Shown here: positions 2,148 through 54,461 of the stretch, piece after piece | Layout of the letters: each line of letters opens with the position of its first letter | How positions within the stretch are numbered: position 1 is the stretch's first letter | Source of the DNA: a virus | Taxonomy: Duplodnaviria; Caudoviricetes | DNA: 64,000 bases | Virus record (IMG/VR): IMGVR_UViG_3300005611_002069 | Coordinates: 1 to 64,000 of that record | Strand: one strand, 5' to 3' | Program-made: the position numbers and the translations under genes | The notes under the pieces: model-generated | Told to the model about the DNA's origin: nothing | The model's database searches: none | What the model saw: the letters and a program-made list of their open reading frames with translations, nothing else

Positions 2148-2213
2148 TGCTTCGTTTGAGAAGCAGATAATAAAACAAACTGGACACGGGGGCAGTACCC
2201 GTCACCTCCACCA
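2148..2213 (+). ncRNA. ssrA: Two-piece (permuted) tmRNA, acceptor piece (5' end approximate)
   Basis: T-arm ACGGG-GGCAGTA-CCCGT (2186-2202) with the alphaproteobacterial GGCAGUA loop, then CACCTCC-A-CCA ending at 2213. Pairs with GGGGGTG at 2431-2437, including the G3.U70 alanine determinant. Confidence 0.92.
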
Positions 2214-2229
2214 ATAAATAGGTTTTTTG

Positions 2230-2460
2230 ATGATTACTTCTTTTATACCTGTATTCGAAGACAATATGCGTAGACTTAAAAAAGACATTGAAAAAGAGCT
2301 TAAACGAGCTAAGTCTGATAGAAGAAAACAGTGGCTTCGAGACACTCTTCGTGATGTTAGACATACTCGTGATCTAATTAAACAAGCTAAGCCAAACGTA
2401 TCTTGTCCTCATTGCGGGGGTAAAATAAATGGGGGTGAAATAGGATCGACAGATGTATAA
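2230..2460 (+). CDS. Small basic helical protein with C-terminal CPHC, encoded in the tmRNA intervening segment
   Basis: 76 open codons from ATG 2230 (TTG 2227 alternative) with AGGT upstream. The last 9 codons and TAA overlap the tmRNA coding piece. Confidence 0.6.
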   Translation: MITSFIPVFEDNMRRLKKDIEKELKRAKSDRRKQWLRDTLRDVRHTRDLIKQAKPNVSCPHCGGKINGGEIGSTDV

Positions 2461-2600
2461 AACTGATTCGAGAAGCAGGTGCGCAAGCGACCTTAACCGC
2501 AAGATTTTATAAATGCAAATGATAATTTTGCACCTCAGGAGTTAGCGCTAGCCGCTTAATTCCTATGCGCCGCTAGGAGCGTGGAAACAGAATCCTAGCA
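2431..2600 (+). ncRNA. ssrA: Two-piece tmRNA, coding piece (3' end approximate); tag (A)ANDNFAPQELALAA at 2515-2559
   Basis: 5' GGGGGTGAAATAGGATCGAC; ATAAAT-GCA resume context; tag ends in LAA-stop; terminal hairpin GCTAGGA/TCCTAGC (2572-2599). Confidence 0.92.
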
Positions 2601-2624: not shown

Positions 2625-3206
2625 ATGTTAAAAACTTATATTTTAGGTAATGGTGGTTTTGCACAAGAAGTATTTGAACAAATATTTCTTAATGAACCAG
2701 GAAAATTAGATTTTGGTGGTTTTATAATCATTAAAAATGATAAAGCTCACGTTATAAATGATGACGGAGTAAAACTGTTTAACTATGATAAAGAAAGTCG
2801 TTTTATTATAGGCACATCGAACTATGAGTGGAGAAAAGTCTTTATAGATCATATTACTAGATTTTATGAAATAAACGTAAAACACTTTCCAAACGTACAA
2901 GCCTACAACGCACATATATCTGGAACAAGTATGCAAGGTGTAGGAAACTTATATCTATGCTTCACACTGATCAATGCAAATGCAGACATAGGTAATTTTA
3001 ATACTTTTAATTGTTATTCTTCTATACATCACGATACAACAGTTGGAGATAATAATTTTTTTGCTGCCTATGCTAGTTCATTACCTTGTAGAAAAATTGG
3101 AGATAATAATATATTACAACCTGGAGAAGTATTATATGAGGATATGGAAGATGACGAGATTCTCTCTTCAGGAGTAGTGCATGATGGTAATCTCCTCAGC
3201 ACATAA
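2625..3206 (+). CDS. NeuD/PglD-like sugar acetyltransferase (hexapeptide repeat)
   Basis: ILGNGGFAQEV N-terminus; I-G-N-F-N/V-G-D-N-N hexapeptide repeats. Confidence 0.7.
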   Translation: MLKTYILGNGGFAQEVFEQIFLNEPGKLDFGGFIIIKNDKAHVINDDGVKLFNYDKESRFIIGTSNYEWRKVFIDHITRFYEINVKHFPNVQAYNAHISGTSMQGVGNLYLCFTLINANADIGNFNTFNCYSSIHHDTTVGDNNFFAAYASSLPCRKIGDNNILQPGEVLYEDMEDDEILSSGVVHDGNLLST

Positions 3207-3870
3207 AGTTGCTTGTATGCAACCGTATTTGTTTCCTTATTTAGGATATTTTCAATTAATAAATGCAGTTGATGATTTTATTGCGTTAGATGATGTTGGT
3301 TATTTTAAGAAAGGTTGGTTACATCGTAATCAGATTATGATAAACAATCAGCCTTTTTTATTTACAATTCCTTTGCACAAAGCTTCACAAAATCGTTTTA
3401 TAAATGAACACTATATTCAAGATAATTGGAGTACTAAGTTTTTAGTCACACTAAAACATGCGTATAGTAAATCTCCTTATTTTGATGATTGTTGGGAATT
3501 TATTGAGAAATTAATTCTAAGCACGTATAAAAAGAATCTTGCAGAAGCTGGTCTTTATATACTAAAGCAAATAAGTTTGAGATTTAAATTACAAACCAAT
3601 TTTGAGTTATCATCTAAAATTAACACTGGTGATAAAACAAAACAAGATAGAATCATAGCTTTATGTAAATCTAAAAATGCGTTAACATACATCAATCCAA
3701 TCGGCGGCAAAGAAATTGGTATGTACCATAAAAAAGATTTCAAACCTATTGAATTAAAATTTATACAAAGAGAAGATAGTGAAGGAATGTATTCAATTAT
3801 TCATTATCTTTTTACAAAAAGCTCAGATGAGATAACAGATATACTGAATCAGTATAAATTAATAGATTAA
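3181..3870 (+). CDS. wbqC: WbqC-like protein
   Basis: MQPYLFPYLGYFQLI, KKGWLHRN, LKHAYSKSPYF, YINPIGG signature blocks. Confidence 0.85.
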   Translation: MMVISSAHKVACMQPYLFPYLGYFQLINAVDDFIALDDVGYFKKGWLHRNQIMINNQPFLFTIPLHKASQNRFINEHYIQDNWSTKFLVTLKHAYSKSPYFDDCWEFIEKLILSTYKKNLAEAGLYILKQISLRFKLQTNFELSSKINTGDKTKQDRIIALCKSKNALTYINPIGGKEIGMYHKKDFKPIELKFIQREDSEGMYSIIHYLFTKSSDEITDILNQYKLID

Positions 3871-3879
3871 GGAGAAAAA

Positions 3880-4068
3880 ATGAAATTATCTAAACTTACA
3901 AAAATTAATGAGTCATACACTATCTATCGTTACGATAACGGTTTTCGTTTTGAAGCAGGCGGTCGTGATGCTGAGAATGAGTACAAGAACGTTAATTTAA
4001 TTCTTAACAGCGAAGAAGAACTAATTGAAGTTATTCAGGAAGCAAACGCAATGGAAAAGGAGGATTAA
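3880..4068 (+). CDS. Small hypothetical phage protein
   Basis: Strong AGGAG RBS, 62 aa, YRYDNGFRFEAGGRD core. Confidence 0.6.
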   Translation: MKLSKLTKINESYTIYRYDNGFRFEAGGRDAENEYKNVNLILNSEEELIEVIQEANAMEKED

Positions 4069-4070
4069 AC

Positions 4071-4721
4071 ATGGCAGTAAAACCAATAATTATTTTTGGT
4101 AATAAAGATTTAGCTGAAATGGCTAAATTTTACTTTACTCAAGTAGGTAGACGTGTAGCAGGATTCACAATGGATAATCCTGAAAGCGATACGTATAAAA
4201 AATTACCTATGTGGGATGCAGAAACTATACATCTTGATTGTCCTTATACTGAGTATGATATGTTTGCACCTATTTATAGTAATATTACGAGACAAAAAAT
4301 TTATGAAAGACTACTAGGACTAGGGTATAAACTAGTAAATTTTGTACACGAGACTGCTCATGTATGGGATTCAGGTATGGTAAGTAGAAACCAAAATGTC
4401 TTCATACAAGAACATAATAATATTCAGTATGGAACTACTATAGGTGATAATAATATTTTTTGGGCAGGTAATCATATTGGGCATCATAGCATTATCGGTG
4501 CTCATAATTATTTTAGTTCTCACGTAGTATTATCAGGACACTGTAAAGTAGGTAACGGTAATTATTTTGGTGTAAATTGTACAATTAAAGATGCTATGAG
4601 TATAGCTAGTGGTAATTTTTTTGGTGCTAACTCGTTTATTTCTAAAAATATAGATACAGATAATACATTATATTTTGGAACACCAGCTACTCCTAAAGGC
4701 GATGCCAAAAAGTATATGTAA
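4071..4721 (+). CDS. NeuD-like sugar acetyltransferase (hexapeptide repeat)
   Basis: IIIFGNKDLAE; IGDNNIFWAGNHIGHHSIIGAHNYFSSHVVLSGHCKVG. Confidence 0.8.
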   Translation: MAVKPIIIFGNKDLAEMAKFYFTQVGRRVAGFTMDNPESDTYKKLPMWDAETIHLDCPYTEYDMFAPIYSNITRQKIYERLLGLGYKLVNFVHETAHVWDSGMVSRNQNVFIQEHNNIQYGTTIGDNNIFWAGNHIGHHSIIGAHNYFSSHVVLSGHCKVGNGNYFGVNCTIKDAMSIASGNFFGANSFISKNIDTDNTLYFGTPATPKGDAKKYM

Positions 4722-5593
4722 TGTGGACAAACAAAAGAATTATTTTTAATAACCGAAGAGCGCAACTACCCGTAGCAGAATTTACAGATGAGGTTTTTAA
4801 TATCTACTATACCTCAAGAAATGTAAAAAACCAAAATATGGGTTACAAACTTACTTTAGATAAAAACTTTAATGTTTTAGATGATAAACTTATACTAGAA
4901 CCTGGAAAGCCAGGTTCATGTGATGTTTCTGGAGTAATGCCTACAGCCATTTGGGGTCGTAATTTATATTATATTGGGTGGACTCTTAGGCATGATGTTC
5001 CTTATTATAATTATACTTGTTTAGCTCAAGAAGAAAATGGTAGATATACAAAACTAGGTCCAGTGCTTCATGCAGATACAATAGGTGATGGTTATACAGG
5101 AACATTAGCTCTTCTACATACTCATCACACAAAGTTTGCATATTATTTAAATTGTATAGATTGGCTACCAGACGAAAATAATAGTCTACAACCAAGTTAC
5201 AACATTGGTTTAGCAGTAACTAAAGATGGAATTAATTTTAGTAAAATGAAAGACCCAGCTATAGACCTTGAAGGAGAAGAAGCAGGAATTTCTTCGGCTA
5301 CAGTGATTGAGCATGAAGGTGTGTATCACATGTGGTTTTCTGTACGACACGCTAAAGAGTTTAGGACAAATCCAGATAAGGCTTATAAAATTAAGCATGC
5401 AACATCTAAAGATGGTTGGAACTGGACAAGAGATGATAAATTTGGTATTATACCAGAATATGAATTTGAATCAATTATGTGCGCTTATCCCTCTGTGTTA
5501 AAAATTGATGATTCGCTATATATGTTCTACAATGGCAATGGTTTTGGAGAAACAGGTATAGCTTTAACCACAATGGAAACAAAATATTTATGA
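4721..5593 (+). CDS. Five-bladed beta-propeller glycoside-hydrolase-like protein (type found in polysaccharide loci)
   Basis: CDVSGVMP, YYIGW, YNIGLAVTKDG, YHMWFSVR, SKDGWNWTR, AYPSV, FYNGNGFGETG. Confidence 0.65.
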   Translation: MWTNKRIIFNNRRAQLPVAEFTDEVFNIYYTSRNVKNQNMGYKLTLDKNFNVLDDKLILEPGKPGSCDVSGVMPTAIWGRNLYYIGWTLRHDVPYYNYTCLAQEENGRYTKLGPVLHADTIGDGYTGTLALLHTHHTKFAYYLNCIDWLPDENNSLQPSYNIGLAVTKDGINFSKMKDPAIDLEGEEAGISSATVIEHEGVYHMWFSVRHAKEFRTNPDKAYKIKHATSKDGWNWTRDDKFGIIPEYEFESIMCAYPSVLKIDDSLYMFYNGNGFGETGIALTTMETKYL

Positions 5594-51414: not shown

Positions 51415-52536
51415 ATGGTTTTATTTTTAACTCAGTATTATAGAGGAATAGGACACGCAAATAGAATTAGATTGTTAGCTGAAGAAGTTGGCAAACATAC
51501 GGAATGTATAGTAGTTGATCAATTATTTAAACCACCTTTAAATTTTACTAACGCAACACATTATGCTCTTTTACATGATTACAAAGTTAAAGACATAAAA
51601 AAAATATTTCATTTTATTCAACAAAAAGAATTAATCAGGTTTCGAATCAGAAAATGGAAAGAAATATTAGATCTACACAAACCTAAAGTCATAGTAGTAG
51701 AAGGTTTTCCATTTTGTAGACATCAATTTGCGTTTGAGTATTTTACTTATTTAAAAGAGGCTAAAAAAAGAAATATAAAGATTCTTTGCTCTATAAGAGA
51801 TTATCCATGGGATGAACCACACGAACCAGGGTTACAAGACTGGGTTGCCAATACACAAAATCTAGCAATTCAAATGTACTTTGATAAAATACTTGTTCAT
51901 GGAGATAAAGACATAATGCCATTACTCTCTGACAGAGTTAGAATTGAAAACACATCAGCAATCATAGGTGAGTTAGAGAAATATGTAACCTACACAGGTT
52001 ATGTGGTAGATAAAAAACTTAAAAAACATGAAAGAAAGAATAACACAGTATATGTAAGTTGCGGCATGAATAAAGAAGAAGTGTTAATTATTTTCAAGCA
52101 GGTGATTAAAGCAGCAGAAAAGTTTCCAGAATTAAATTTCATAATGCCAACTGCTAATGATTATATGGAAAAGTTAAAAAATACAACAAAACGAAATGTA
52201 ACACTAACTGACTATATCGAAAATTTATCTAGTAAAATATCTGATTGTGCTTTGTTTATTACTTATGGTGGGTATAACTCAACAATGGAGATACTACAAA
52301 CAGAGTGTCCTGCTATAATAATTCCTAGGCAAAATGGTCAAAAACTGGAACAATTTGTTAGAGCATACGCATTTGAGCCTCTCAATGTTTTTAAAGTTTG
52401 TAGTCCTAATGAATTAAATAATCTACACAAAGTTATAATCGAAGCTCAGAAAGATAAATCTTTTCCAAAAAAATTTGAATATAGTATGAATGGGGTAGAA
52501 AACAGTGCAGAAGAAATCTTCAAGTATATCTCTTGA
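51415..52536 (+). CDS. GT-B glycosyltransferase (GT1/GT28-like)
   Basis: QYYRGIGH; FITYGGYNSTMEI; IIPR..QKLEQ. Confidence 0.8.
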   Translation: MVLFLTQYYRGIGHANRIRLLAEEVGKHTECIVVDQLFKPPLNFTNATHYALLHDYKVKDIKKIFHFIQQKELIRFRIRKWKEILDLHKPKVIVVEGFPFCRHQFAFEYFTYLKEAKKRNIKILCSIRDYPWDEPHEPGLQDWVANTQNLAIQMYFDKILVHGDKDIMPLLSDRVRIENTSAIIGELEKYVTYTGYVVDKKLKKHERKNNTVYVSCGMNKEEVLIIFKQVIKAAEKFPELNFIMPTANDYMEKLKNTTKRNVTLTDYIENLSSKISDCALFITYGGYNSTMEILQTECPAIIIPRQNGQKLEQFVRAYAFEPLNVFKVCSPNELNNLHKVIIEAQKDKSFPKKFEYSMNGVENSAEEIFKYIS

Positions 52537-53059
52537 CGAGTTTAAAAAAATGAGAAATGAATGGCGAGAACAAATTGCTATATCTGAAATTAAACAGATA
52601 AGTTATTGGAAGTCAATAAATGCCTTGGAGCTTGCATATAAAAATGCTGCAAAAAATAAGTATATTGTCATGACTTTGCGAGACAAAAAAATGCGTTATA
52701 AGTTTCCTAAAGCCAAGAATGTAGTTTTAGTTGGTTCTGGAATGTATCCCTATAGTCTGTTTGATTTACATAAGCAGTATCCTCATATAAAATCAATAGG
52801 GATCGAGATAGATAAAAAAAGAGCATTGATTAGTAAAATACTTGTGGAAAACTCACCAGCTAAAGACATGATTACTATTTTAAATTGTGATGGTATAGAC
52901 TATGACTATAGTTGGTTAGACCATGATGATCTAGTATTTGTAAGTGTTGATGTTGAGATAGAAAAAAAGATACAAGAGAAAGTTATACTTGAAAGTAAAG
53001 CATCACCTTTTCTTTGTGCGCCTTATCATACGGCGTGGAGAGACGCTTACCTTAGTTGA
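52505..53059 (+). CDS. Nicotianamine-synthase/CntL-like SAM-dependent transferase (short)
   Basis: VVLVGSGMYPYS resembles NAS/CntL GSG(P/A)(L/Y)PxT; IGIEID; DLVFVS. Start uncertain. Confidence 0.5.
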   Translation: MQKKSSSISLDEFKKMRNEWREQIAISEIKQISYWKSINALELAYKNAAKNKYIVMTLRDKKMRYKFPKAKNVVLVGSGMYPYSLFDLHKQYPHIKSIGIEIDKKRALISKILVENSPAKDMITILNCDGIDYDYSWLDHDDLVFVSVDVEIEKKIQEKVILESKASPFLCAPYHTAWRDAYLS

Positions 53060-53128
53060 CTTTCTCTTCTTCGGTTTGCGTCTCTTTACACCATAATTGC
53101 TTTTAAAGGCATCTACGTCAGTAATCAT
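53003..53128 (-). CDS. Very basic 41-aa peptide (absent from ORF track)
   Basis: MITDVDAFKSNYGVKRRKPKKRKSTKVSVSPRRMIRRTKKR; ATGA coupling to upstream ORF. Confidence 0.55.
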   Translation of the reverse strand: MITDVDAFKSNYGVKRRKPKKRKSTKVSVSPRRMIRRTKKR

Positions 53129-53334
53129 TTCTTTTTCTTAATAGTCCTGATTACCTGTATATTAGGGTTTTTAACTTCTTTAATAAGTCTAGTTTTTTCT
53201 GGCAAAGTTCTATAGTATTCCATTGTTTTACTTTTTACAGCAGAATCATATTCCTCAATTAATCCAACTCTTGGATCACCAATCATTTCTAACTTACCTT
53301 CGCCCTTACCTGAGCCAAATGTATCTCTAGCCAT
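53125..53334 (-). CDS. Small hypothetical protein
   Basis: AGGAG RBS, 69 aa. Confidence 0.6.
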   Translation of the reverse strand: MARDTFGSGKGEGKLEMIGDPRVGLIEEYDSAVKSKTMEYYRTLPEKTRLIKEVKNPNIQVIRTIKKKK

Positions 53335-53344
53335 GGGTCACTCC

Positions 53345-53716
53345 TTACAGTGCAGGGCCGCCTTTTAGAGGTGCGTAAAACTTACCACCCATGCCGCCTT
53401 GAACATTTTCACTAGCTGCTTGGTACTTTTTATTTATACCAGTAGCTGCTGGACCTTTTGATACATGACCTGCGGCCATAGAACCAGCTGCTGAACTCAT
53501 ATCAGCCATTACTGGACCTTGATCTACGTATCCAGGAGCAGTTTTCATTCCAGCCATTGGGCCACCTTTTACAGCGCCAGCAGGTCTAGAATCACTTGAA
53601 CCCGTGAATGAAGTTCTCTGTGTGCCACCTTTTGGCATACCTGTAGCTTGTTTAGCATTTTTTACATACTTTAAAGCTTCGGCATCACCTGTGACTGTTT
53701 TTTTAATCATAGACAT
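53345..53716 (-). CDS. Low-complexity G/A/M/K-rich protein, probable virion internal protein
   Basis: AGGAGG RBS; recurrent (K/Q)GGP/(K/Q)GP motifs. Confidence 0.6.
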   Translation of the reverse strand: MSMIKKTVTGDAEALKYVKNAKQATGMPKGGTQRTSFTGSSDSRPAGAVKGGPMAGMKTAPGYVDQGPVMADMSSAAGSMAAGHVSKGPAATGINKKYQAASENVQGGMGGKFYAPLKGGPAL

Positions 53717-53729
53717 TATGTTGTCCTCC

Positions 53730-54461
53730 TTATGAAATTGCTGCTTTTACAGTTTCCGTATTATTACCAGCGTTAGCTGCTTCTGAGACAGATGATCTTA
53801 CAGTTACAGTTGGTGCACCACCAGCTGCGATTGAAGTAAAGTAAGAGTTTGCACCAGTAAATGTACAATGTTCAATTACTGTAGCAACGTTACTTAGCAT
53901 TCCAGTGTCTACTGGAAAGTTACAATATCTGTAAGTTTGGCTTCCAGAATTGTTATGAGCAACAACACCATAACCTGCTGAAACATTATCACCAAATGTA
54001 CAATTTTCTGCTATGATTACAGAAGCTGCATCATCCGCTACAACACCTGCGTTTGAATCTAATACACCAGTTGTAATACCTGCATTAGCAATTGCTAGTG
54101 CAGCACTTCTACTTGGACCGTCTGTTCCATCAAAAATACAATTTTCAAAGGTTACAGTAACAGCAGCGTTACCTACAATTGCTCCTGGTGAAGCGATTTT
54201 GCAGTTTTTAATTATTACGTTTGAACCAGCTGTTATACCAGATGGTATAGAAAAACCAGTAAACACAATATCTTTAGCATCGCCCATACCCATTATAGTT
54301 ACATCTGCAACATTAGTTGTTCTTGGATCGGTATAAGAACCTGGTAACACTTGAATTACATCACCTGCTTGTAGATGGTTAGTAGGAATATGGTCAATAG
54401 ATTTGAACTGTGCGCCCAAGTTAAGTTCTGGGCTAACTATGTGAGTCTGTTTATTTGACAT
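53730..54461 (-). CDS. Right-handed beta-helix (pectin-lyase-like) protein
   Basis: AGDVIQVLPGSY entry motif; repeated I/F-x-N-C-x-F beta-coils. Confidence 0.65.
   Translation of the reverse strand: MSNKQTHIVSPELNLGAQFKSIDHIPTNHLQAGDVIQVLPGSYTDPRTTNVADVTIMGMGDAKDIVFTGFSIPSGITAGSNVIIKNCKIASPGAIVGNAAVTVTFENCIFDGTDGPSRSAALAIANAGITTGVLDSNAGVVADDAASVIIAENCTFGDNVSAGYGVVAHNNSGSQTYRYCNFPVDTGMLSNVATVIEHCTFTGANSYFTSIAAGGAPTVTVRSSVSEAANAGNNTETVKAAIS

Follow-up and report, generated by a model that had tools for sequence, protein, structure and literature searches.

The stretch of DNA analysed here (the window: 64,000 nucleotides (nt), the first 64 kilobases (kb) of the 72,237-nt IMG/VR virus record IMGVR_UViG_3300005611_002069, the completeness of which is estimated at 63%) carries a permuted, two-piece gene for transfer-messenger RNA (tmRNA), and the spacer between its two pieces is almost completely occupied by a protein-coding open reading frame (ORF), here called ORF1. 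The tmRNA was recognised at full length as alpha-type by cmscan against Rfam (RF01849 alpha_tmRNA, 2109-2602, 111.1 bits against a gathering score of 50, model positions 1-355), and the permuted model matched as well (RF04321 tmRNA_permuted, 2149-2559, 105.2 bits against a gathering score of 47, model positions 1-213), whereas ARAGORN reported no tmRNA in the window. The features of the locus are as follows.

2149-2213, + strand: acceptor piece, with the 5' hairpin and P2 strand, the T-arm (2186-2202), the acceptor 3' strand (2203-2209), the discriminator A2210 and CCA (2211-2213), from the Rfam alignments and a stem search
2214-2430, + strand: spacer (intervening segment) of 217 nt, an unaligned insert between the model halves in both Rfam alignments
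2431-2602, + strand: coding piece, with the acceptor 5' strand (2431-2437), the SmpB-binding D-loop analogue, a P2 strand, the tag frame and the 3' helices, from Rfam
2515-2559, + strand: tag reading frame, from GCA at 2515 to TAA at 2557-2559, with the translation ANDNFAPQELALAA
2230-2460, + strand: ORF1, ATG at 2230, 76 codons and TAA at 2458-2460
2220-2223, + strand: AGGT, a weak, putative Shine-Dalgarno-like motif 6-7 nt upstream of the ATG

The tmRNA looks functional, as far as its sequence can tell. In addition to the full-length Rfam matches, GGGGGTG (from G2431) pairs with CACCTCC (2203-2209) in an acceptor stem of 7 base pairs (bp) with G3.U70 as the third pair, CCA is encoded, and the tag frame is intact, with its resume alanine codon and an ...ALAA end followed by the stop. 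The T-arm pair A2186-U2202 of the window is changed to C-G in the two closest related loci (L012 and L013), which is a compensatory change. The minimum-energy fold of the whole 454-nt precursor keeps the acceptor stem across the 217-nt insert. Processing into two RNAs, by ribonuclease P (RNase P) at the 5' G of the coding piece (G1) and by 3' trimming to CCA, and activity with SmpB are predicted; no SmpB gene was found in the 72,237-nt record (about 63% complete), and host SmpB is presumably used by the phage tmRNA. The same gene order, 7-bp stem with G3.U70, encoded CCA and ...ALAA tag are found in the two-piece tmRNA genes of Alphaproteobacteria (Caulobacter; RF01849, RF04321; PMC11915505), but the spacers there have a median length of 33 nt (70 loci), in contrast to the 217 nt found here, 93% of which is a selected protein gene.

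ORF1 fills 201 of the 217 nt of the spacer (93%) and crosses the tmRNA 5' end between the codons AAT/GGG (2431 - 2230 = 201 = 67 x 3; the stroke marks the 5' end), and its first in-frame stop, the TAA at 2458-2460, is positioned at +28..+30 of the tmRNA. A first-pass annotation, made from the letters of the window, had described a CCA end at 2213, a coding piece from 2431, a 217-nt spacer and a 76-amino-acid (aa) basic ORF (2230-2460) that passes AAT/GGG on a codon boundary and has its sole stop inside the tmRNA. All of these coordinates hold by Rfam and by sequence, no earlier in-frame stop exists, and the encoded protein is indeed basic (isoelectric point (pI) 9.9; 18 K+R against 11 D+E). 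Codons 1-66 correspond to a conserved family core ending ...CPHCGGKI, while codons 68-76 (GGEIGSTDV), which follow the junction Asn, are the tmRNA 5' end read in frame. As none of 200 shuffles of the spacer contained an ORF as long as ORF1, its length is beyond chance. ATG 2230 was taken as the start because L013 has TTA where the window has an upstream TTG. The motif TAGGTTT is conserved in two further related loci, L002 and L014, within a leader that is merely 50% identical.

Several lines of evidence show that ORF1 is under selection at the protein level. Against the clade of L002 and L014, the ratio of nonsynonymous to synonymous substitutions (dN/dS, Nei-Gojobori) was 0.28-0.33 at a dS of about 0.6. 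A word-seeded search recovered 11 homologues of ORF1, and a profile search with the family among 1.84 billion cluster representatives gave 158 matches at an expect value (E) <=0.001, 81 of them at <=1e-10, nearly all being 66-80 aa in length. In a 66-member alignment, C59 and C62 are invariant and R31, P60 and G63 are present in at least 90% of the sequences. The family signature, which ORF1 carries completely, consists of an N-terminal ITxFxxVFE, a basic helical hairpin with a near-invariant Arg, and CPHCG 2-4 residues from the C-terminus. Correspondingly, the AlphaFold2 model places helices 3-24 and 33-53 in a hairpin with a terminal knuckle (mean predicted local distance difference test score 89.6). 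The dN/dS of 0.28-0.33, the 158 cluster matches and the confident model together indicate that ORF1 is a real protein gene, and the first-pass annotation was right to call it one, the family now numbering at least 158 clusters. Judged from its sequence and its model, ORF1 is an ordinary, selected small phage gene, predicted to encode a basic protein of about 66 aa with a helical hairpin and a terminal CPHCG half zinc-knuckle, in which the lone CxxC may indicate a shared metal site or a partner.

No named family could be assigned to this protein. Significant matches in the structure search were uncharacterised phage proteins alone, and Foldseek retrieved nothing from the PDB at E <=0.001; the helical hairpins of DksA, the HK97 small terminase and XaxA appeared at E 1-2 and were judged non-specific. 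A DksA/TraR-like identity was rejected, since two cysteines are present instead of a four-cysteine finger and Foldseek placed DksA (1tjl) at E 2.2, and a homing endonuclease was rejected in view of the lack of any LAGLIDADG, HNH or GIY-YIG hit in Pfam and of a PHROG HNH row at E 0.063. Membership of the ArfA family was likewise rejected, as Pfam at E up to 1 listed none for ORF1 and two homologues. In addition, the Pfam and PHROGs matches of ORF1 all stayed below threshold (zinc-ribbon and coiled-coil noise), and an Atlas feature search gave only unnamed viral clusters.

Comparison of related loci revealed where the family ordinarily ends and how the layout of the window may have arisen. The window-type form is found in L012 and L013, which come from independent JGI and ENA assemblies; their proteins are at least 94% identical, their spacer is likewise 217 nt long, and ORF1 again reads through into the tmRNA. 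Two Logan assemblies encode the same protein. The 76-codon form is thus present in independent JGI, ENA and Logan assemblies, so the stop-less junction is real and not an assembly error. In L002-L005 and L014, ORF1 is 71-74% identical and also resides inside the tmRNA spacer, which is 402 nt long there, and the flanking genes correspond to those of the window, with DUF2061 and a 167-aa gene on the upstream side and hexapeptide transferase and WbqC genes on the downstream side. In these loci ORF1 has a TAA of its own after ...CPHCGGKL and overlaps, at TAATG, the start of a second ORF of 62 aa (ORF2), the TAA of which ends 1 nt before G1. Between the window and L002, the acceptor piece is 94%, the coding piece 95% and ORF1 77% identical, which points to RNA-level constraint on the pieces and a different constraint on the spacer.

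More distant homologues, 38-52% identical, were found at 19 loci, of which L006-L011 come from public assemblies and L135-L147 from IMG/VR, and every one of them has its own stop. The 13 IMG/VR loci were located with a 12-member family alignment (a locus search with the ORF1 protein alone gave no confirmed related locus) and were scanned with Rfam at E up to 0.1 within 1.5 kb. Rfam found no tmRNA at any of the 19 loci, L008 being covered through its duplicates L006/L007. The gene contexts of these homologues vary; in L006-L009, L011 and L141 the upstream gene abuts the homologue, so there is no space for an acceptor piece. In L011 a near-consensus sigma-70 promoter (355-400; TTGACA, 17 nt, TATAAT) lies right after the homologue with its own stop, so that ORF1 there closes a transcription unit. 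The own stop is therefore absent only in the window, L012 and L013, and present in L002-L005, L014, L006-L011 and L135-L147. As the other members stop there with a codon of their own, ...CPHCGxx is the natural C-terminus of the family, and this cargo family normally resides elsewhere with its own stop.

The junctions of the two spacer-resident clades can be placed side by side. The window reads GGT AAA ATA AAT/GGG, i.e. AAAATAAAT/GGGGG, and the L002 junction reduced to a single ORF would be GGT AAA TTA TAA T/GGG, the expected sequence being AAATTATAAT/GGGGG. Relative to the L002 type, we infer that one base has gone from the stop codon and that one substitution has occurred. The stop-less state is derived.

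To place the locus in a broader range of genomes, tmRNA spacers of phages and bacteria were surveyed. The viral census used a 20-nt pattern from the tmRNA 5' end, which matched at least 120 IMG/VR contigs and provides a sample only; the viral counts below are among the matches listed, acceptor pieces were located by a simple rule, and IMG/VR contigs may hold some host DNA. An upstream acceptor piece was present in 114 of 118 viral occurrences counted, and Rfam at the gathering score confirmed the tmRNA in all 20 loci submitted. The spacer lengths were as follows.

Viral contigs: 114 loci with an acceptor piece; spacer 3-499 nt, median 83.5 nt; at least 100 nt in 51 of 114
Alphaproteobacterial chromosomes: 70 loci with an acceptor piece; spacer 3-2012 nt, median 33 nt; at least 100 nt in 4 of 70

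The bacterial outliers (107, 116, 174 and 2012 nt, within L148-L227) are possible insertions or artefacts of the acceptor finder. Of 55 distinct viral spacers measuring 100 nt or more, 49 are filled to at least 70% by a forward ORF, if three that fall under 70% (L002, L014 and L085) are counted as members of known families. The mean fill was 0.80 on the forward strand versus 0.47 on the reverse strand, and the spacer ORFs form 26 sequence clusters. The supposition of the first-pass annotation that spacers are short and non-coding consequently stands for bacteria (median 33 nt) and fails for phages, in which ORF-filled spacers are common. The phage tmRNA spacer is a general slot for small genes and is used by many aquatic phages.

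Two positions of the stop codon are found among these 49 ORFs. In 22 the stop lies inside the mature tmRNA, at +13, +30/+33 or +51/+55, which are the first stops that the conserved tmRNA sequence offers in each frame, and in 27 it lies before the tmRNA, mostly at -1 (TAAT/G), -7 or -12. Both states occur within one cluster in two cases, that of the window and that of L017/L107. Spacer ORF families other than ORF1 have dN/dS values of 0.03-0.27, which indicates strong purifying selection, with the proviso that all dN/dS values given here, those of ORF1 included, rest on short genes. For example, a family of 35-36 aa in spacers of 108-118 nt (L092, L097, L033, L096, L118, L099 and L030) stops inside the tmRNA in 7 of 7 members, ending ...[ML]GAK at a TAG at +11..+13, apart from L099, which lacks that TAG and extends to +55; its dN/dS is 0.07-0.25 with saturated dS. 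As this family is under purifying selection, proteins whose stops lie inside the tmRNA are evidently made. Hydrophobic, membrane-like peptides of 38-59 aa fill the spacer in nine distinct phage tmRNA genes (L119, L133, L064, L108, L058, L072, L078, L040 and L085), with the stop always packed against G1 (TAAT/G) and a dN/dS of 0.03-0.27.

These observations are probably best explained by a selected small gene in the spacer slot, the expression of which would depend on competition between translation and RNase P, and by a stop-less junction that arose recently as a by-product of junction remodelling. The spacer would be transcribed along with the tmRNA pieces, most likely within a long + strand polycistronic RNA, and each precursor would then face two competing fates, translation or RNase P maturation. 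Ribosomes on an uncut precursor would unwind the acceptor stem and finish at the TAA at +28..+30, so that the 76-aa product with the C-terminus ...GGKINGGEIGSTDV is made. If the tRNA-like domain folded first, RNase P would cut at G2431 and mature tmRNA would be released; the remaining spacer RNA, without a stop codon, would probably be short-lived, and any product made from it would be tagged and degraded. A tagged non-stop product would be ...GGKIN plus AANDNFAPQELALAA, and an untagged one ...GGKIN. On a non-stop message, ribosomes are expected to stall at the 3' end, with tmRNA tagging and proteolysis to follow (PMC3989581), and the observation of the first-pass annotation that a cut at G2431 would strip the message of its stop is logically sound. 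Rapid decay of the cut upstream RNA would be expected because secG mRNA of Escherichia coli behaves in this way, having a half-life of <30 s once RNase P separates secG from leuU (PMC2241853). The stop-less junction itself would combine the absence of a second spacer ORF with the loss of one base from an ancestral ...TTA TAA T/GGGGG, and this state may be tolerated because the whole conserved core is still made. Since inside-stop families are under protein-level selection, a useful share of precursors would be translated before they are cut, and competition between translation and maturation is the best-supported reading of the locus.

The anatomy of the locus, selection on the coding sequence, the distribution of the family, the derived state of the junction and the general use of the slot are shown by the data above. 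Several points weigh against this explanation. Co-transcription, the RNase P site at G2431, translation of the precursor, its competition with processing and the fate of the cut message are steps that we infer, and the ribosome-binding site of ORF1 (AGGT) is weak. At least three variants that stem from different samples and have diverged from one another (dS 0.02-0.075) share the stop-less form, and such persistence fits neutrality and would equally fit a selected coupling; similarly, the whole, unrelated 35-aa spacer family retains its stop within the tmRNA. In addition, ORF2 was either lost in the window clade or gained in the L002 clade. ORF2 homologues are also known outside the spacer, immediately ahead of the acceptor piece in L094, L048 and Melnitz, a phage of OM43 bacteria, and 1.7 kb downstream of the tmRNA in L080 (positions of the family: L002:1062-1250; L094:1336-1524; L048 1649-1464, - strand; L268 (Melnitz MZ577097):269-469; L080:6911-7090), and either the ORF2 gene or the acceptor piece would have shifted relative to the other between clades.

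The first-pass annotation had proposed a self-sensing switch modelled on ArfA, in which RNase P makes a non-stop message, so that the ORF1 protein is tagged and degraded and accumulates only when trans-translation fails. The geometry fits this proposal, as the only stop lies at +28..+30 in the mature tmRNA, the cut would separate two whole codons, and a non-stop product would retain the entire 66-aa core. The arrangement is also kept in three diverged variants, inside-tmRNA stops are frequent and stable in other selected spacer families, and ArfA provides a real precedent (PMC3989581): if the RNase P cut preceded translation, the two systems would be alike in that an endonuclease drops the stop and trans-translation destroys the product. 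In E. coli, however, the non-stop arfA mRNA is cut by RNase III at a hairpin inside the ORF, whereas RNase P would act here on a tRNA-like fold, and ORF1 has neither similarity to ArfA nor a basic C-terminal tail. Moreover, the stop-less layout is not conserved in the family but is limited to one shallow clade (at least 94% amino-acid identity). The first-pass annotation had suggested examining whether homologues also sit in tmRNA spacers with the stop inside the coding piece, and had counted homologues routinely unlinked to tmRNA and with their own stop as a refutation, which is the situation found: the 19 distant loci have no tmRNA nearby and carry their own stops, as do all other members, including the nearest spacer-resident relatives. 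The alternation of inside and outside stops in two clusters suggests that the trait is labile, and purifying selection on inside-stop families implies that the proteins of those families are made in normal infections. Because the trait is confined to one shallow clade and absent elsewhere in the family, a dedicated sensor is not supported for ORF1 by these comparisons, and we consider the switch unlikely.

It is, in our view, quite improbable that ORF1 is a decaying gene, i.e. one that became poorly expressed after the loss of its stop and is turning into a pseudogene with no present function. In favour of such decay, the loss of the stop is a recent, derived change, ORF1 has a weak ribosome-binding site, and substitutions within the clade are too few to show selection (dN/dS 0.13-0.81 on 3-7 changes); yet all variants seen keep the 76-codon frame open, free of frameshifts and internal stops, the substitutions within the clade are mostly conservative (D/E, N/S, V/I, H/Y), and other inside-stop families are clearly selected. 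Somewhat less probable still is a cis-regulatory ORF whose translation, rather than its protein, times or throttles tmRNA maturation via the acceptor stem, for although a ribosome terminating at +28..+30, or at the -1 stops of the relatives, must by the coordinates cover or unwind the acceptor 5' strand, and spacer ORFs nearly always reach to within 15 nt of G1 or past it, the ORF1 protein is conserved in many phages without a tmRNA nearby and hence has a function of its own, and 26 unrelated ORF clusters in the slot fit cargo better than a dedicated leader peptide.

We offer a further-reaching suggestion as speculative. With the spacer of two-piece tmRNA genes serving aquatic phages as a general expression slot, a cargo stop that lies at the RNase P site or past it (22 of 49 spacers, that of the window among them) might make the yield of the cargo depend on a race among translation, maturation and trans-translation. 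If true, the expression of small phage proteins would be tied directly to the capacity for ribosome rescue. The window clade and the L002 clade, with the stop inside the tmRNA and with an own stop, respectively, form a natural pair for the question of whether trans-translation gates the cargo. More generally, such loci offer a natural system for translation versus RNase P processing on a single molecule, since one transcript is both an mRNA and the precursor from which a stable RNA directed at broken mRNAs is made.

Related arrangements are the small ORFs of the tRNA cluster of phage T4 and the tRNA punctuation of mitochondrial transcripts. The tmRNA database paper describes a tRNA-Ala and a repetitive element within spacers and no protein genes (PMC11915505). 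Group I introns, some of them with LAGLIDADG homing endonuclease genes, are known in the T-loop of tmRNA (PMC11915505) and likewise place a protein gene in a segment that is missing from the mature RNA; unlike these introns, the spacer described here would not be spliced but would leave by ordinary end-processing, and ORF1 has no nuclease domain. The secG-leuU transcript is similar in being an mRNA-tRNA co-transcript that is split by RNase P (PMC2241853), but the message of the present locus is enclosed in a single stable-RNA gene, flanked by two pieces that must pair with each other, and the stop is found beyond the cut in 22 of 49 spacers. A survey from 2014 contained only one-piece phage tmRNAs (PMC4131195). 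The first-pass annotation did not recognise the arrangement as described before, and our literature search found no paper describing ORFs in tmRNA spacers. The window contributes ORF1 as a new cargo family, a natural pair of junction states in one syntenic lineage, and clear evidence that such cargo ordinarily lives outside tmRNA spacers with a stop of its own. Spacers have been treated as throw-away RNA, whereas here and in many other aquatic phages they appear to be the messenger for selected small proteins.

Two-piece tmRNAs are known in marine myophages, namely the OM43 phage Melnitz and pelagimyophages (PMC9004378), and Melnitz resembles the present phage in having an alpha-type permuted ssrA embedded among the genes of an aquatic phage; in the parts of that paper that we consulted, the coding capacity of the spacer is not discussed. 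In Melnitz (L268; MZ577097.1, 45984-46436), the stretch 473-925 of L268 is annotated only as SsrA, although its 141-nt spacer contains an unannotated ORF (locus positions 573-749) of 58 codons from a TTG (55 if counted from the first ATG) that continues for 42 nt within the tmRNA, an example of how annotation pipelines overlook spacer genes. The ORF2-family gene is a conserved neighbour of the tmRNA in Melnitz, and the same family is found inside the spacer in L002. As a cultured phage-host pair of the same layout, Melnitz and OM43 strain H5P1 make the question directly testable. The present phage is unlike Melnitz in its PolA, DnaB and NAD-dependent ligase type and in lacking a glutamine riboswitch, which in Melnitz follows the tmRNA (52.8 bits).

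The ORF2 family itself comprises proteins of 62-66 aa with a hydrophobic N-terminus and conserved cysteines, and is a recurrent neighbour of phage tmRNA genes. Nothing was found for ORF2 in Pfam or PHROGs. A 58-aa ORF behind the L006 homologue of ORF1 was considered as a relative of ORF2 and rejected, the translations being unlike and the ORF being absent from the tblastn matches of ORF2.

The immediate neighbours of the tmRNA gene are the following.

1659-2147, + strand: 162-aa gene, the TAG of which ends 1 nt ahead of the acceptor piece
2625-3206, + strand: hexapeptide-repeat transferase-like gene, which begins 22 nt past the tmRNA match and has a strong AGAGGA ribosome-binding site

The 162-aa gene has no match in Pfam or PHROG searches, and its syntenic counterparts in L002, L012 and L013 encode 154-167 aa; the syntenic counterpart of the 2625-3206 gene in L002 and L012 gives a faint Hexapep hit. 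A scan for promoters and terminators around the tmRNA gave no convincing promoter, promoter-like sites being fewer than in shuffled sequence, and placed no + strand terminator before 3208, on which grounds a stand-alone transcription unit for the tmRNA was rejected. As the upstream gene ends 1 nt before the tmRNA and the next starts 22 nt after it, with no convincing promoter or terminator, the tmRNA pieces would be cut from a polycistronic + strand RNA.

In the window as a whole, the guanine-plus-cytosine (GC) content is about 32%. The genes encoded include a family A DNA polymerase (PolA), a DnaB-like helicase, an NAD-dependent ligase, a ribonucleotide reductase, an SbcC-like protein and tail proteins, and by this gene content the source is evidently a large tailed phage unlike T4. 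Blastn of the locus against 50,697 phage records gave no match. The large ORFs keep to the + strand for roughly the first 52 kb and to the - strand from there on; at approximately 52,500-54,000, gene orientation and GC skew flip, with replication and metabolism genes on the + strand giving way to tail and structural genes on the - strand. Directly 3' of the tmRNA, a sugar-modification cluster (2625-5593, + strand) consists of two hexapeptide-repeat transferase-like genes, a WbqC-like gene and a GH130-like gene, all named after the Pfam hits of their syntenic counterparts in L002 and L012. A gene for ribosomal protein bS21 (863-1144, + strand; Pfam Ribosomal_S21, E 1.3e-09; PHROG 'ribosomal protein S21') is positioned 1.3 kb upstream of the tmRNA, so that two translation-related genes sit near each other in this phage, and an epimerase-like gene is located at the start of the window.

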